From a virus (Duplodnaviria > Heunggongvirae > Uroviricota > Caudoviricetes): a DNA stretch of 5,484 nucleotides. The notes beneath the pieces are model-generated. The model saw only the letters and a list, made by a program, of their open reading frames with translations, was not told the DNA's origin and ran no database searches. A program made the translations under genes and the position numbers. The stretch lies in IMG/VR virus record IMGVR_UViG_2606217104_000010; one strand, written 5' to 3'. Below, piece after piece: positions 1,658-5,484 of this stretch. The stretch's first letter is position 1. Each line of letters opens with the position of its first letter.

Positions 1658-2319
1658 ATATCTACGAAAGAATTGATGGCAGCAAATACCGAAATATTTG
1701 GGTAGTTGGCGATCTGCACGGATGCTACACGAACCTGATGAAAAAACTGGAGACGATAGGATTCGACACCAAAAAAGACCTGCTTATCTCGGTGGGCGAT
1801 TTGGTTGATCGCGGTACAGAGAACGTAGAATGCCTGGAATTAATCACATTCCCCTGGTTCAGAGCTGTACGTGGAAACCATGAGCAAATGATGATTGATG
1901 GCTTATCAGAGCGTGGAAACGTCAATCACTGGCTGCTTAATGGCGGTGGCTGGTTCTTTAATCTCGATTACGACAAAGAAATTCTGGCTAAAGCTCTTGC
2001 CCATAAAGCAGATGAACTTCCGTTAATCATCGAACTGGTGAGTAAAGGAAAAAAATATGTCATCTGCCACGCCGATTATCCTTGTGATAAATACGAGTTT
2101 GGAAAGCCAGTTGATCATCAGCAGGTAATCTGGAACCGCGAACGAATCAGCAACTCACAAGACGGGATCGTGAAAGAAATCAAAGGCGCGGACACGTTCA
2201 TCTTTGGTCATACGCCAGCAGTGAAACCACTCAAATTTGCCAACCAGATGTATATCGATACTGGCGCAGTGTTCTGCGGAAACCTCACATTGATTCAGGT
2301 ACAGGGAGAAGGCGCATGA
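1654..2319 (+). CDS. ninI: Lambda-type Ser/Thr protein phosphatase (lambda-PPase, NinI/ORF221; calcineurin-like metallophosphoesterase).
   Basis: The 221-aa translation [80 protein letters not shown]... contains the metallophosphatase motifs GDLHG, GDLVDRG and GNHE, and is near-identical to lambda protein phosphatase from memory. The start overlaps the ninG stop (ATGA). Confidence 0.95.
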
Positions 2320-2939
2320 GACTCGAAAGCGTAGCTAAATTTCATTCGCCAAAAAGCCCGATGATGAGCGACTCACCACGGGCTACGGCTTCTGACTCTC
2401 TTTCTGGTACTGATGTGATGGCTGCTATGGGGATGGCGCAATCACAAGCCGGATTCGGAATGGCTGCATTCTGCGGTAAGCATGAACTCAGCCAGAACGA
2501 CAAACAAAAGGCTATCAACTATCTGATGCAATTTGCACACAAGGTATCGGGGAAATACCGTGGTGTGGCAAAGCTCGAAGGAAATACTAAGGCAAAGGTA
2601 CTGCAAGTGCTCGCAACATTCGCTTATGCGGATTATTGCCGTAGTGCCGCTACGCCGGGCGCAAGATGCAGAGATTGCCACGGTACAGGCCGTGCGGTTG
2701 ATATAGCCAAAACAGAGCAGTGGGGGATAGTTGCTGAGAAAGAGTGCGGAAGATGTAAAGGCGTCGGTTATTCAAGAATGCCAGCAAGCGCCGCATATCG
2801 CGCTGTGACGATGCTAATCCCAAACCTTACCCAACCCACCTGGTCACGCACTGTTAAGCCGCTGTATGACGCTCTGGTTGTGCAATGCCACAAGGAAGAG
2901 TCAATCGCAGACAACATTTTGAATGCGATCACACGTTAG
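2316..2939 (+). CDS. Q: Late-gene antiterminator Q, lambda-type allele.
   Basis: The 207-aa translation [83 protein letters not shown]...[12 protein letters not shown]...[21 protein letters not shown]... is essentially the lambda Q protein from memory, including the zinc-finger Cys cluster. The start overlaps the ninI stop (ATGA), and PR' follows about 40 bp downstream. Confidence 0.95.
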
Positions 2940-2981
2940 CGCCATGATTGCCACGGATGGCAACATATTAACGGCATAATA

Positions 2982-3030
2982 TTGACTTTTTGAATAACTT
3001 TGGGGAAACTTGACACCAATAATGGGCGTT
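2982..3030 (+). promoter_or_regulatory. Late promoter PR' with the overlapping qut (Q-utilisation) region: -35 TTGACT (2982-2987), 17-bp spacer, -10 GAAACT (3005-3010), then the initial transcribed/pause region.
   Basis: Sequence ATTGACTTTTTGAATAACTTTGGGGAAACTTGACACCAATAATGGG aligns with lambda PR'/qut (TTGACT-TATTGAATAAAATTGGG-TAAATT-TGACTCAACGATGGG, from memory). It is positioned immediately after Q, as in lambda. Similarity to lambda is lost shortly after 3025. Confidence 0.75.
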
Positions 3031-3151
3031 TTTTACATGTCATTGATGAGTCTCAATAACCTGCCGCCGAGTAGTTTTTATGCTCTGAATTGTATTTGTG
3101 TAGTAAACATGCTGACTGCAATGTAATAGAGTTTTTTTAGCCTGTAACCTC

Positions 3152-3180
3152 TTGACGGCATTGAATTGCTTTTGTTATGA
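3152..3180 (+). promoter_or_regulatory. Possible sigma70 promoter internal to the insert: -35 TTGACG (3152-3157), 17-bp spacer, -10-like TTATGA (3175-3180).
   Basis: Motif reading only. The -10 is weak. It lies about 40 bp upstream of the preferred start of the membrane-protein ORF. Confidence 0.25.
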
Positions 3181-3218
3181 GTTGTAAGCCAATGTTATCA
3201 TCTTGTATTGGGGTGGTT

Positions 3219-4068: not shown

Positions 4069-4179
4069 ATGGTGATGATGGATTTCACCAGCAGGATAAT
4101 GTTGGTACTGACTGATGGCGCTCTGGTCTGCGGCATTGTGGTATTGCTGTGGCCGATGATGAAAGAACAGAATGAATAA
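4069..4179 (+). CDS. Possible small hydrophobic peptide (36 aa from ATG 4069; up to 42 aa from GTG 4051), a single transmembrane segment with a charged C-terminal tail (KEQNE).
   Basis: Open frame 4018-4176, translating MVMMDFTSRIMLVLTDGALVCGIVVLLWPMMKEQNE*. There is no convincing Shine-Dalgarno sequence. It is too short for the ORF track. The composition resembles small membrane toxins or phage accessory peptides, but there is no sequence match. Confidence 0.25.
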   Translation: MVMMDFTSRIMLVLTDGALVCGIVVLLWPMMKEQNE

Positions 4180-4182
4180 TTC

Positions 4183-4211
4183 TTGACTTTTTTGTTTACT
4201 GTTTATTAAAA
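4183..4211 (+). promoter_or_regulatory. Promoter-like element: perfect -35 TTGACT (4183-4188) followed by an AT-rich stretch with a TATTAA/TTAAAA -10 candidate.
   Basis: Motif reading. The spacer to TATTAA (4204-4209) is 15 bp; to TTAAAA (4206-4211) it is 17 bp. It lies about 180 nt upstream of the intrinsic terminator at 4366-4392. Confidence 0.3.
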
Positions 4212-4365
4212 AATCAACCGCATGGTGAATCCTCCTTGGAGGGGCTAAATGATCGAGTTTTAAGGGCACGTAGCGAGTTCTGTTTGATCATTGCAGAACT
4301 TAGCGGGAGGCGCCATGCGTACATCACTAATGTTATTTCCTTCTATCATTTTCCTTGTGAGTTCT

Positions 4366-4392
4366 GGCTGCGCATGGCGCGGCCTTTTTTTT
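4366..4392 (+). terminator. Rho-independent (intrinsic) terminator: GC-rich hairpin GGCTGCGC-ATG-GCGCGGCC followed by an 8-T run.
   Basis: Direct reading: an 8-bp stem (one U-G wobble), a 3-nt loop, then TTTTTTTT at 4385-4392, on the + strand about 85 nt upstream of the nanS-p start. Confidence 0.75.
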
Positions 4393-4478
4393 ATGACCTG
4401 CCACTGGCAGATGGTCATCCTGTGATTTGATTCCGCTTCCGGCTTTTTAACTCTGTTCCTCTACACGGGAGAAATTCG

Positions 4479-5484
4479 ATGTCGATTAAACATTACGATG
4501 TTGTCAGGGCGGCGTCGCCGTCAGACCTTGCGGAAAAGCTGACACACAAACTGAAAGAGGGCTGGCAGCCATACGGCGGATCGGTTGCCATTACGCCGTA
4601 CACACTGATGCAGGCGGTGGCTATTGAAGGAGAGCCACAGGTCGGCCCTTCATCTGAGCCGGATTGGTACTACGTCATCGTACTGGCCGGGCAGTCCAAT
4701 GCCATGGCTTACGGTGAAGGGCTTCCGCTGCCGGATTCATACGATGCTCCGGATCCGCGCATTAAACAGCTGGCGCGCCGCAGTACAGTGACGCCGGGCG
4801 GGGCTGCCTGCAGATATAACGATATTATTCCGGCTGACCACTGTCTGCATGATGTGCAGGATATGAGTACGCTGAATCATCCGAGGGCTGACCTGAGCAA
4901 AGGGCAGTACGGCTGTGTCGGCCAGGGTTTACATATTGCCAAAAAACTGCTCCCGTATATCCCGAATAACGCGGGGATCCTGCTGGTACCATGCTGTCGT
5001 GGTGGTTCGGCATTTACCCAGGGCGCGGAGGGGACATTCAGCGAGTCCACGGGGGCCAGTCAGGATTCGGCACGCTGGGGGGTGGGCAAGCCGTTATATC
5101 AGGATCTGATTTCCCGCACAAAAGCGGCATTGCAGAAAAATCCCAAAAACGTTCTGCTGGCCGTCTGCTGGATGCAGGGTGAGTTTGACATGAGCGCCGC
5201 CACCCACGTACAGCAACCTGCGCTGTTTACAGCCATGCTGACACAGTTTCGTGCTGACCTCTCCGTGTTTAACGCGCAGTGCCATGGTGGCAGTGCTGCA
5301 GATGTGCCGTGGATTTGTGGTGACACGACGTATTACTGGAAAAATACATACGCTACCCAGTACGACACCGTGTACGGCGGGTATAAAAACAGGGAGAGTG
5401 AGGGCGTTTATTTTGTGCCCTTCATGACAGACGGTAACGGCGTCAATACCGCCACTAACGCGCCGGCAGAAGATCCGGATATTC
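4479..5484 (+). CDS. nanS-p: Prophage-encoded sialate O-acetylesterase (NanS-p-like; N-terminal DUF1737-type domain followed by an SGNH/SASA esterase domain), 5' portion; continues beyond the window end.
   Basis: The ATG at 4479 is preceded by a GGGAGA ribosome-binding site. The frame is open to the window edge, which is why it is missing from the ORF track. The translation begins MSIKHYDVVRAASPSDLAEKLTHKLKEGWQPYGGSVAITPYTLMQAVAIEGEPQ, followed by ...DWYYVIVLAGQSNAMAYGEGLPLP..., which contains the GQSN catalytic-serine motif of SGNH hydrolases. It matches my memory of the nanS-p/yjhS-like genes found downstream of the stx position in E. coli O157 prophages. Confidence 0.85.
   Translation, partial: MSIKHYDVVRAASPSDLAEKLTHKLKEGWQPYGGSVAITPYTLMQAVAIEGEPQVGPSSEPDWYYVIVLAGQSNAMAYGEGLPLPDSYDAPDPRIKQLARRSTVTPGGAACRYNDIIPADHCLHDVQDMSTLNHPRADLSKGQYGCVGQGLHIAKKLLPYIPNNAGILLVPCCRGGSAFTQGAEGTFSESTGASQDSARWGVGKPLYQDLISRTKAALQKNPKNVLLAVCWMQGEFDMSAATHVQQPALFTAMLTQFRADLSVFNAQCHGGSAADVPWICGDTTYYWKNTYATQYDTVYGGYKNRESEGVYFVPFMTDGNGVNTATNAPAEDPDI

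Follow-up and report, generated by a model that had tools for sequence, protein, structure and literature searches.

A lambda-type Q region, an AT-rich membrane-protein and sRNA cassette and a nanS-p-type gene in a probable prophage segment of Escherichia coli

Genes and features of the segment

The window, that is, the whole stretch of 5,484 nucleotides that was analysed, very probably derives from a lambda/434-like (Alegriavirus-type) Escherichia coli prophage, of which it covers the segment with late control and the moron site. It is arranged in the order of a lambda-type Q gene, a lambda-like pR'/qut region, an AT-rich cargo block and a gene for a DUF1737 plus NanS-like esterase (Table 1). 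These elements, with the cargo ORF, had been named in the initial annotation, and all were recovered at approximately the coordinates first given. The Q protein shares 203 of its 207 residues with lambda Q, and window positions 1730-3014 align with lambda 43300-44584 at a DNA identity of 96%; Q, NinI and NinG are all 96-98% lambda-like, whereas Q933W gave no match in the window. Upstream, ninB is truncated by an IS3-family element; the prophage may be defective, and Q might never be made.

Table 1. Features of the analysed DNA, with positions numbered from the first letter of the window
Feature	Position	Strand	Evidence
Late-gene antiterminator Q, lambda type, 207 aa	2316..2939	+	PF03589, E=1.2e-57; 98% identity to lambda Q
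Late promoter pR' with qut	2982..3026	+	column-by-column alignment with lambda pR'
pR' -35, TTGACT	2982-2987	+	lambda pR' alignment
pR' spacer, 17 nt, putative Q-binding region	2988-3004	+	lambda pR' alignment
pR' -10, GAAACT	3005-3010	+	lambda pR' alignment
pR' start, predicted	about 3017-3018	+	lambda pR' alignment
pR' -10-like pause element, AATAAT (3018-3023) + GGG (3024-3026)	3018-3026	+	lambda pR' alignment
Decayed remnant of phage 434 leader terminator, CTGCCGCCGAGTAG+T5	3061..3079	+	hairpin dG -1.2 kcal/mol
Candidate own promoter of cargo gene: -35 TTGACG (3152-3157), 18-nt spacer, extended -10 TGtTATGAG (3173-3181)	3152..3181	+	predicted from sequence
Polytopic membrane protein, PF27470 ("TfpB" in Pfam; "STM1630 family protein" in RefSeq), 238 aa	3219..3935	+	26-homologue alignment
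DUF3927 small membrane protein, 52 aa (PHROG label "TciB-like")	4021..4179	+	PF13064, E=3.4e-14; phrog_1470, E=2.5e-17
Candidate pasD promoter: -35 TTGACT (4183-4188), -10-like TAAAAA (4207-4212)	4183..4212	+	predicted from sequence
sRNA gene pasD1, 173 nt, Hfq-dependent, STnc100 relative	4220..4392	+	173/173 identity to EPEC E2348/69 PasD1
pasD1 proposed seed, UGUGAG	4356-4361	+	proposed
pasD1 intrinsic terminator: stem (4366-4384) + U8 (4385-4392)	4366-4392	+	dG -14.0
Two further hairpins between pasD1 and nanS-p: 4393-4418; CCGCTTCCGG+CTTTTT (4433-4448)	4393..4448	+	
nanS-p-type sialate O-acetylesterase gene, 5' part (335 codons), running past the window end	4479..5484	+	DUF1737 + SASA

The cargo ORF ends at 3935 and has three possible starts (3177, 3192 and 3219), among which the alignment of 26 homologues favours the ATG at 3219, preceded by an SD-like GGGGTGG at 3210-3216. 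A search of the protein against a local copy of Pfam-A, whose models do not include PF27470, returned no match; the PF27470 assignment is precomputed on proteins 94-100% identical to the cargo protein and on all 108 homologues. This family is restricted to Enterobacterales. The protein also matches phrog_1521, a group of unknown function, and has no match in the PDB. Its AlphaFold2 model, which is of low confidence (pLDDT 59), comprises about five transmembrane helices and a C-terminal β domain. For all four candidate products, the PADLOC defence models gave 0 families at E values up to 0.1.

One membrane-protein gene had originally been assigned to the cargo slot; this gene is indeed present, but it is not alone, as the slot also contains the DUF3927 gene and the PasD1 sRNA. 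The DUF3927 gene, pasD1 and its terminator had been overlooked in that first reading. The DUF3927 gene is annotated in RefSeq and in phage 434. PasD1 was placed in E2348/69 via the Table S6 coordinates of PMC8550237, and the reverse complement of its Northern probe corresponds to window 4353-4376. PasD has been validated by Northern blot and RIL-seq as an Hfq-dependent sRNA of EPEC (Pearl Mizrahi et al. 2021); its relation to STnc100 and its conserved neighbour Q are also published. The Rfam STnc100 model (RF02076) scored 37.7 bits over its full length (E about 1e-5), below the gathering score of 47, which fits the published view of PasD as a diverged relative. Within 2800-4600, the terminator scan identified the PasD1 terminator as the sole terminator-like site. 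Because pasD1 and its terminator occupy 4220-4392, the ORF at 4236-4430 is in all likelihood no real gene.

As had been claimed, the slot carries neither stxA/stxB nor tRNA genes. ARAGORN found 0 tRNA genes in the window, tblastn of the Stx2 A/B queries against it gave chance matches alone (E of 7 or more), and none of its ORFs matched stxA or stxB.

The esterase ORF possesses a DUF1737 domain (PF08410, E=2e-14) and a NanS-like SASA domain (PF03629, E=5.9e-13), matches E. coli NanS (PDB 3PT5, E=6.5e-110) and is 68% identical over 335 aa to 933W NanS-p, in support of its earlier identification as a nanS-p homologue. In near-identical loci the full-length esterase has 616 aa; the window stops at codon 335. 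The lysis genes expected after nanS-p are found in near-identical loci, whereas any of the window's own would lie past its end: in E. coli Z1323CEC0015, 99.7% identical over 2316-5484, the esterase is followed by a class II holin, the RrrD lysozyme and a lysis protein, and in phages 434 and 2B8 the lysis genes are also located 3' of the esterase. The same holds for 12 of the 16 window-type IMG/VR loci, the other four comprising three that end at contig ends and one with a deletion. The nanS-p gene itself is optional, since in EPEC PP4, which has no esterase, the holin gene comes straight after the same cargo, the homology ending 25 nt into nanS-p. The occurrence of nanS-p in non-Stx prophages has already been published.

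Late control and expression of the cassette

At the sequence level, the window has a PF03589 Q, a Q-binding element between the -35 and -10 of pR' and a pause element, as expected for a lambda-type Q/qut unit; the roles assigned to these elements are those established for lambda pR'/qut. By analogy with lambda, Q would bind its cognate site in pR' and load onto an RNA polymerase that pauses just past the start, at the -10-like element. Once modified by Q, the polymerase would ignore every terminator further downstream and go on to transcribe nanS-p, the lysis cassette and the morphogenesis genes. Phage 2B8 shares an identical 290 bp upstream of the cargo ATG at 3219, including the pR' region. 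Comparison with the lambda leader and tR' showed no significant similarity in the window, and the terminator scan gave no terminator-like site at 3017-4366 that could represent an efficient tR'-like terminator shortly 3' of pR'.

Expression data were taken from Table S2 of PMC8550237, as DESeq2 baseMean values of uninduced EPEC that pool wild-type and hfq-mutant libraries and are not length-normalised. In PP2, the values are 69 for Q, 226 for the membrane protein, 37 for DUF3927, 11,017 for pasD2, 102 for the esterase, 3.5 for holin and 3.2 for lysozyme; in PP4, which has no esterase and for which DUF3927 is not listed, they are 6.0 for Q, 147 for the membrane protein, 8,652 for pasD1, 5.4 for holin and 3.9 for lysozyme. 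By our own arithmetic on these counts, the membrane-protein gene stands about 8-50 times above the lysis genes per kb, although the reads cannot be cleanly divided between PP2 and PP4, whose cargo copies share about 99% identity. Uninduced counts also include some late transcription from a subpopulation of cells that induce spontaneously. The cargo had been described as late-expressed; its position downstream of pR'/qut agrees with this, but expression is not late alone, since in uninduced EPEC the cargo far exceeds the lysis genes.

In our partly inferred reading, the cassette most likely serves lysogenic conversion and is more than late cargo. Both its membrane-protein gene and its sRNA gene pasD1 are transcribed in uninduced lysogens, probably from promoters of their own at about 3152-3181 and 4183-4212, and in the absence of Q the strong PasD1 terminator would prevent this transcription from reaching nanS-p and the lysis genes. 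Two observations argue for an own promoter of the cargo gene. Firstly, cargo expression is equally high behind the intact 434-type terminator of PP2. Secondly, the -35 and extended -10 are kept exactly at the left homology edge of a 59%-identical paralogue on ETEC plasmids: the homology starts at window 3148, 4 nt before TTGACG, with TTGACG and TGTTATG both retained and all sequence further upstream different. The -10 of this candidate lacks the consensus final T. The candidate pasD promoter ends 8 nt before the published 5' end of PasD1, mapped here to 4220.

The lambda pR' is constitutive, which allows an alternative that we regard as unlikely, namely that pR' is active throughout and that, with the leader terminator decayed as in this lambda-Q variant, unmodified polymerase crosses the cargo and halts at the PasD1 terminator. 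On this view, the lambda 6S RNA would have its functional counterpart in the cassette. The hairpin at 3061-3079 is indeed far weaker than the intact leader terminator of phage 434 (CCCGCTGCCGAGTGGG, dG -8.5 kcal/mol plus T8), and its form tracks the Q type, being decayed in all lambda-Q-type loci and intact in all Q82-type loci. The absence of a terminator-like site between pR' and 4366 and a leader with no stable fold (z=0.26) are also consistent with such read-through. However, PP2 expresses its cargo at no lower a level behind the intact terminator (the read assignment between the copies being uncertain), the homology of the ETEC paralogue sets in at the candidate promoter rather than at pR', and the -10 of the window, GAAACT, is weaker than the TAAATT of lambda.

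It is quite improbable that the cargo is purely late, as the initial annotation had it, with no promoter of its own and the membrane-protein gene expressed only via Q-antiterminated pR' in lytic growth, as stx2 largely is. The cargo does lie 3' of pR'/qut and 5' of the lysis genes, all of them on one strand, Stx as a filling of this slot depends on Q according to published work, and the consensus scan did not list the element at 3152-3181, finding no canonical sigma-70 promoter there; yet uninduced EPEC gives 147-226 normalised counts for the cargo against 3-5 for holin and lysozyme, the cargo of PP4 exceeds Q itself (147 vs 6.0), the adjacent pasD is among the most abundant sRNAs without induction, and the promoter-like element is kept in a paralogue outside any phage context.

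In the sense attributed to Juhala and co-workers in 2000, a moron is said to differ in composition from its flanks and to carry its own promoter and terminator, leading to expression from a repressed prophage. The cargo has a GC content of 37% (36% in the membrane-protein gene), unlike the flanking phage genes Q (51%) and nanS-p (56%); a terminator is present, a promoter is predicted, and expression without induction is seen in the published RNA-seq. Our best guess, speculative and drawn from other prophage morons, is that the membrane protein and DUF3927 might act at the envelope, for example in superinfection exclusion or in surface or colicin tolerance. In its widest form, which we hold to be doubtful, PF27470, DUF3927 and PasD would make up a self-contained lysogenic-conversion cassette with its own promoters, switched on in the repressed prophage, whose membrane proteins alter the envelope (e.g. 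superinfection exclusion, colicin tolerance) and whose mRNA is wired into the prophage sRNA network, a link proposed on the basis of PasA::E2348C_0686 RIL-seq chimeras. PF27470 genes adjoin eltAB on ETEC plasmids, sseJ in Salmonella and LpxR in Citrobacter; if this widest form held true, these toxin/effector loci would be relics of lambdoid late-region moron slots.

The slot between Q and nanS-p

A survey of 53 IMG/VR loci, in which the nanS-p N-terminus is at least 93% identical, yielded 22 slot fillings of 911-4756 bp, located behind three or more Q types; among these fillings are tRNAs, TerB-like, methylase, AraC, CPBP protease, porin, lipoproteins and Stx1. The slot is thus an exchange hotspot for cargo, as had been suggested from the window, but not a new one: the same site was described as a "moron insertion site" with sRNA genes, downstream of pR' and between Q and a conserved phage ORF, in the Sakai prophages Sp3, 4, 5, 9, 10, 11, 15 and 17, the Stx2 of Sp5 being one of its fillings (Tree et al. 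2014, PMC4104026). The layout is real yet ordinary, and the exact module is already annotated in phage 434 and in EPEC E2348/69 PP2 and PP4. The cargo block is present in 682 of 5,426 complete E. coli genomes, and 340 genomes contain at least 80% of 2316-5484. The same cargo is found behind two Q types, the lambda type here and the Q82 type in phage 434 and EPEC PP2.

Homology of the window to lambda spans 1730-3014, that to phage 434 spans 3058-5484, and that to 933W runs from 4466 on only. The left boundary of the slot is tight, in that the lambda homology ends in the initially transcribed region, and Q therefore appears to travel with its own qut. The right boundary is formed by the sRNA terminator and nanS-p, as in Stx phages. 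An STnc100-family gene precedes nanS-p in 12 of 14 representative loci, 933W included, often with a convergent AgvB or AsxR gene, and in 71 of 79 copies, the GGCTGCGC...GCGYGGCC+T terminator is found 80-102 nt before nanS-p. Between these boundaries, the AT-rich cassette was probably acquired horizontally and consists of three parts, the PF27470 membrane protein, the DUF3927 mini-protein and the sRNA PasD1.

Descent from a degraded Stx phage, which lost stxAB and the tRNA genes and later gained the membrane-protein gene, would explain the nanS-p, STnc100-family sRNA and terminator in common with Stx phages, and a 2026 Pas preprint proposes a Stx-phage origin for Pas sRNAs, but it is highly improbable given the lambda-like Q, NinI and NinG, the late onset of 933W homology, the same cassette in 434 (source given in its record as Paris sewer, late 1950s) and lambda-like 2B8, both classified as Alegriavirus, and the many unrelated slot fillings, which fit modular exchange better than loss from one ancestor.

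Comparison with known systems

Compared to the lambda Q-pR'-qut-tR' module, Q is 98% identical, and the window aligns with lambda at the -35, the Q-binding spacer, the -10 and the pause element. The window differs in that the homology breaks off at 3014, the 6S leader and tR' of lambda being absent, and in that lambda has neither cargo nor nanS-p ahead of S. Phage 434 (GenBank OL657226) is 98.9% identical to window 3058-5484, with the same order of leader, 247/238-aa membrane protein, TciB/DUF3927, terminator, SASA esterase, pinholin, SAR endolysin and spanins. They differ in late control, where 434 pairs a Q82-like Q with a pR' of its own and its leader terminator is intact, compared to the lambda Q/qut and decayed terminator of the window, and 434 carries a PasD2-type terminator allele (CATTGCGCAGCC).

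In EPEC, PP4 (E2348C_1011-1016) shares with the window its lambda-type Q protein (WP_001235460.1), its cargo and pasD1, the latter with 100% identity over 4220-4392, but lacks the esterase and continues with holin. PP2 (E2348C_0685-0691) resembles the window in its cargo, pasD2, esterase, PasA and holin, whereas its Q is of the Q82 type.

The late region of Stx2 phage 933W reads Q933W, pR', ileZ-argN-argO, stx2AB, STnc100/AsxR, nanS-p, S and R. The order of Q, pR'/qut, cargo and nanS-p in the window is therefore that of 933W, and the right border is also alike (STnc100-family sRNA, GGCTGCGC...GCGCGGCC terminator and nanS-p). The Stx-phage-like layout first proposed holds for this gene order but not for the Q/qut unit, which belongs to another Q family; moreover, 933W has tRNAs and stx where the window has none, and its esterase is only 68% identical. 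At the lambdoid moron site of Tree et al., variable coding sequences likewise separate Q/pR' from a phage ORF that is conserved, and sRNA genes occupy the right border, a pattern reproduced by our survey. The window differs from this site in nothing essential, PasD replacing STnc100 plus the AgvB/AsxR pair.

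Gene content of the window and of the cargo slot

The window carries Q, the late promoter pR' with its Q-binding element (qut), the cargo and a nanS-p-type esterase gene in this order on the plus strand, and neither Stx homologues nor tRNA genes were found in it, which confirms the layout of a Shiga-toxin-converting phage without stx that the initial annotation had described. The esterase ORF is a nanS-p homologue as assumed, for the fragment within the window shares 68% identity with NanS-p of phage 933W and matches E. coli NanS (PDB 3PT5) with E=6.5e-110. At its left end (1-376 on the minus strand, and 480-698), the window carries the end of an IS3-family element next to a truncated ninB; the element contains a fragment of an ALIL frameshift pseudoknot (1-23) and shares 97-99% identity with copies present in about 4,000 E. 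coli genomes. As the nin region of the prophage is disrupted, Q may be cut off from early transcription.

Features identified in the window
Feature	Position	Strand	Basis or remark
NinG gene	1034-1657	+	ORF and family searches
NinI phosphatase gene	1654-2319	+	ORF and family searches
Q gene	2316-2939	+	203/207 identical to lambda Q
pR' -35, TTGACT	2982-2987	+	alignment with lambda
pR' spacer, 17 nt, matching Q-binding element	between -35 and -10	+	alignment with lambda
pR' -10, GAAACT (lambda: TAAATT)	3005-3010	+	alignment with lambda
pR' predicted start	about 3017-3018	+	alignment with lambda
-10-like AATAAT, then GGG (lambda: AACGAT GGG)	3018-3026	+	alignment with lambda
Candidate cargo promoter: TTGACG, 18 nt, TGtTATGAG	3152-3181	+	conserved in ETEC plasmid paralogue
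Polytopic membrane-protein ORF (cargo), 238 aa	3219 (ATG)-3935	+
DUF3927 gene, 52 codons	4021-4179	+	family search
Candidate pasD promoter: -35 TTGACT; TAAAAA	4183-4188; 4207-4212	+	ahead of PasD1 5' end
pasD1 sRNA gene	4220-4392	+	173/173 identical to EPEC PasD1
Esterase gene (nanS-p type)	4479 to beyond window end	+	DUF1737 and SASA domains

The slot between qut and nanS-p had been described as holding an unknown membrane-protein gene; this gene is present, but the slot also holds a DUF3927 gene and the sRNA gene pasD1. The start codon of the membrane-protein gene is backed by an alignment of 26 homologues, and annotation should be set to it. The protein belongs to PF27470, which precomputed Pfam data call “TfpB” and recent RefSeq annotation calls “STM1630 family protein”; by the homologue set and a profile search, this family is restricted to Enterobacterales. 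No hint at function came from the local Pfam-A copy, NCBIfam or PADLOC, no sequence match was found in the PDB, profile search included, and the profile search matched only Enterobacterales proteins with uninformative names. The AF2 model (pLDDT 59) was too poor for use. The literature searched reports no phenotype for the Salmonella homologue STM1630 and uses “TfpB” only in unrelated senses. About 13% of the complete E. coli genomes, those of EHEC and EPEC among them, encode the protein, and lysogens express it.

PF27470 genes also occur in other neighborhoods. A 59%-identical paralogue on ETEC plasmid contigs (L092-L095, e.g. CP122871.1, gene at 4001-4714) lies divergently beside the heat-labile enterotoxin genes (Enterotoxin_a/b) and near STb, with IS elements on the flanks. 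The Salmonella homologue (L088) adjoins a gene with Sif and GDSL-lipase domains, which we take to be SseJ, and that of Citrobacter rodentium (L096) has LpxR fragments beside it, an arrangement like the LpxR-Q-cargo order of phage 434 minus Q. In Yersinia enterocolitica (L089-L091), a PF06530-type Q, representing a third Q family, lies immediately upstream of the homologue. As for the DUF3927 gene, PHROGs labels it TciB-like; no experimental source for “TciB” was found, the literature hits being unrelated uses, and “DUF3927” is mentioned once, in passing, in the literature searched.

The assignment of pasD1 rests on its complete identity to PasD1 of EPEC E2348/69 and on the Northern probe for PasD1, the reverse complement of which corresponds to 4353-4376. 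A full-length Rfam STnc100 match spans 4190-4395 at 37.7 bits, below the gathering score of 47, and PasD has been related to STnc100, with Q as a conserved neighbor (Zhu, Shabalina and Storz, 2026 preprint). In EPEC E2348/69, PasD2 of prophage PP2 and PasD1 of prophage PP4 are each listed directly behind the DUF3927 gene, and PasD is a validated, abundant and Hfq-dependent sRNA (Pearl Mizrahi et al. 2021, PMC8550237). The sole terminator-like site in 2800-4600, at 4366-4392 (ΔG -14.0), is the PasD1 terminator. The ORF at 4236-4430 was rejected as a protein gene, given the absence of family matches and the presence of pasD1 in this region; this ORF and the minus-strand PGAP pseudogene at 4260-4501 are thus most likely artefacts, and annotation should replace both by pasD1. 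RefSeq and phage records show the region as hypothetical ORFs on either strand, and a minus-strand annotation antisense to pasD also occurs at L087 7186-7584 (E2348C_1013), whose RNA-seq count of 2,064 probably represents pasD1 reads rather than a real gene.

Boundaries of the Q/qut unit and the leader terminator

The window shares 96% DNA identity with lambda over 1730-3014 (lambda 43300-44584), and homology is detectable up to 3014, within the initially transcribed region. The roles of the pR'/qut elements are established lambda biology, carried over to the window by alignment. Starting at 3058, the window matches phage 434 with 98.9% identity; 434 arrives at the shared cargo sequence from a Q82-like Q and a promoter of its own. 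These boundaries indicate that Q and its cognate qut move as one unit, and that the cargo block, a unit by itself, has become linked to at least two Q/qut units.

Local alignment against shuffles revealed no significant remnant of the lambda 6S leader or its terminator tR' in the window. A MAFFT alignment had suggested that 3100-3200 is the lambda post-tR' leader with the hairpin deleted; this was rejected, as the local alignment score of 16 fell below the shuffle mean of 18.3 and was equalled or beaten by 281 of 300 shuffles. At the junction, phage 434 has a terminator composed of CCCGCTGCCGAGTGGG and T8 (ΔG -8.5; 3982-4007 of the 434 locus L001), the decayed form of which lies at 3061-3079 of the window (CTGCCGCCGAGTAG and T5, ΔG -1.2) and recurs in every lambda-Q-type locus. 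One stem position of the 434-type terminator is changed on both sides in the lambda-Q-type copies, from C-G to U-A. The leader fold showed nothing notable (z=0.26).

Expression of the cassette in lysogens

Expression was taken from Table S2 of PMC8550237 as DESeq2 baseMean of uninduced EPEC under the activating condition, where the libraries pool the wild type and an hfq mutant, reads multi-map between the near-identical PP2 and PP4 copies, and some cells induce spontaneously. The values for PP2 are 69 (Q), 226 (membrane protein), 37 (DUF3927), 11,017 (pasD2), 102 (esterase), 3.5 (holin) and 3.2 (lysozyme); those for PP4 are 6.0 (Q), 147 (membrane protein), 8,652 (pasD1), 5.4 (holin) and 3.9 (lysozyme), with DUF3927 not listed and the esterase absent. 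By our own arithmetic on these multi-mapping reads and pooled libraries, the membrane-protein gene lies about 8-50 times above the lysis genes per kb, and in PP4, whose reads multi-map with PP2, about 20 times above Q. The proposal of late-expressed cargo therefore holds only in part, as the cargo reaches 147-226 in uninduced EPEC against 3.2-5.4 for the lysis genes, and annotation should not assume the cargo to be late-only.

The candidate promoter at 3152-3181 is a better candidate for lysogenic cargo expression than read-through from pR'. Homology with the ETEC plasmid paralogue begins 4 nt before the candidate -35 and keeps TTGACG...TGTTATG, whereas the sequence upstream is wholly different. 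Read-through past the decayed junction terminator, which is common to the lambda-Q-type loci, is weakened as the main route: cargo expression is equal or higher in PP2, behind an intact terminator (although reads multi-map between the copies), so read-through is not required; it is retained as a rival reading. We propose that the cassette's own candidate promoters drive its transcription in the lysogen, and that the PasD1 terminator would shield nanS-p and the lysis genes for as long as Q-modified polymerase is absent.

The mRNA of E2348C_0686, corresponding to window 3219-3935, was detected in Hfq-bound RIL-seq chimeras with PasA, an sRNA whose gene follows downstream of the esterase gene in that prophage (57 reads, weak statistics; PMC8550237). 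The PasA site in the published RIL-seq list is GCAGGUGUUG AUGAUGUUGCC AGAAGUUUAU, and the same string occurs in the window near 3350-3380.

The slot and its surroundings in related prophages

Reference proteins were mapped onto 80 IMG/VR loci with a nanS-p N-terminus at least 93% identical, a sample skewed to close nanS-p alleles and IMG/VR contigs. The 53 loci with a recognisable upstream Q fall into 22 slot types of 911-4756 bp, in support of the slot as a general exchange hotspot. The Q genes ahead of the slots are lambda-type, distant lambda-like, Q82-type and Q933W-type, and the cassette of the window occurs in 16 loci, nine with Q82-type and seven with lambda Q. Other fillings are tRNA clusters, a TerB-like gene with DUF3927, an N6/N4 DNA methylase, an AraC-type regulator, a CPBP/Rce1-like protease, a porin, two lipoproteins, several unknown genes and Stx1. 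In L085, a minus-strand gene pair beside a DNA methylase (slot 16-1477), encoding a 308-aa protein and a 182-aa membrane protein without Pfam matches, might be a defence candidate.

The right border is conserved: 12 of 14 representative loci, 933W among them, have an STnc100-family sRNA gene ahead of nanS-p, often paired with convergent AgvB or AsxR. In 71 of 79 nanS-p copies (L007-L086), the gene is preceded at a distance of 80-102 nt by a terminator of the form GGCTGCGC-loop-GCGYGGCC plus a T-run, as counted with a looser pattern; a strict regex undercounted. This terminator spans many slot types, including that of 933W downstream of stx2B (L005 3563-3590); it is the PasD1 terminator in the window and lies beyond the sRNA genes in AgvB/AsxR-type loci. 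In L046 and L051, an apparent short 5' fragment of a holin gene (ATGAAATCCATGGACAAAATTTCAACGGG...) abuts nanS-p about 130 nt upstream and replaces the sRNA and terminator, which suggests that recombination took place between the starts of the holin and esterase genes.

The full-length esterase has 616 aa in loci at least 99% identical, where a class II holin, a SAR-type or RrrD lysozyme and spanins follow, the lysis genes expected beyond the window. S and R were seen in 12 of the 16 window-type IMG/VR loci; three of the others are cut off by the end of the contig, and in one a deletion fuses esterase to lysozyme. The nanS-p gene is itself dispensable: EPEC PP4 has the same Q, cargo and pasD1 joined to the holin, and the homology stops after the first 25 nt of nanS-p. 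The phi24B homologue has been reported as a DUF1737-anchored capsid decoration protein (2026 preprint), and if this role is general, nanS-p would be a late structural gene rather than cargo. In phage 2B8 (L002 8125-8295), the sequence of window 5314-5440 is tandemly duplicated, and the esterase looks disrupted or mis-annotated: its annotated CDS has 972 nt, and a CDS labelled “Mobile element protein” comes next.

Altogether, the initial observation is confirmed, while its interpretation is partly supported and not new; the region carries little weight as a discovery, and its practical value lies in annotation. Sequence downstream of a Q-antiterminated pR' is known to tolerate moron insertions (Tree et al. 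2014, PMC4104026), and nanS-p in both Stx and non-Stx prophages has been reviewed (PMC8065619, PMC10462455). The literature or annotated records already contain the slot and its sRNA border, nanS-p in non-Stx prophages, and the exact module, which is annotated in phage 434. With its cargo block in 682 of the 5,426 complete E. coli genomes, among them O157:H7, O111, O103, O145 and E2348/69, the region is an ordinary and widely represented example of an architecture already described.
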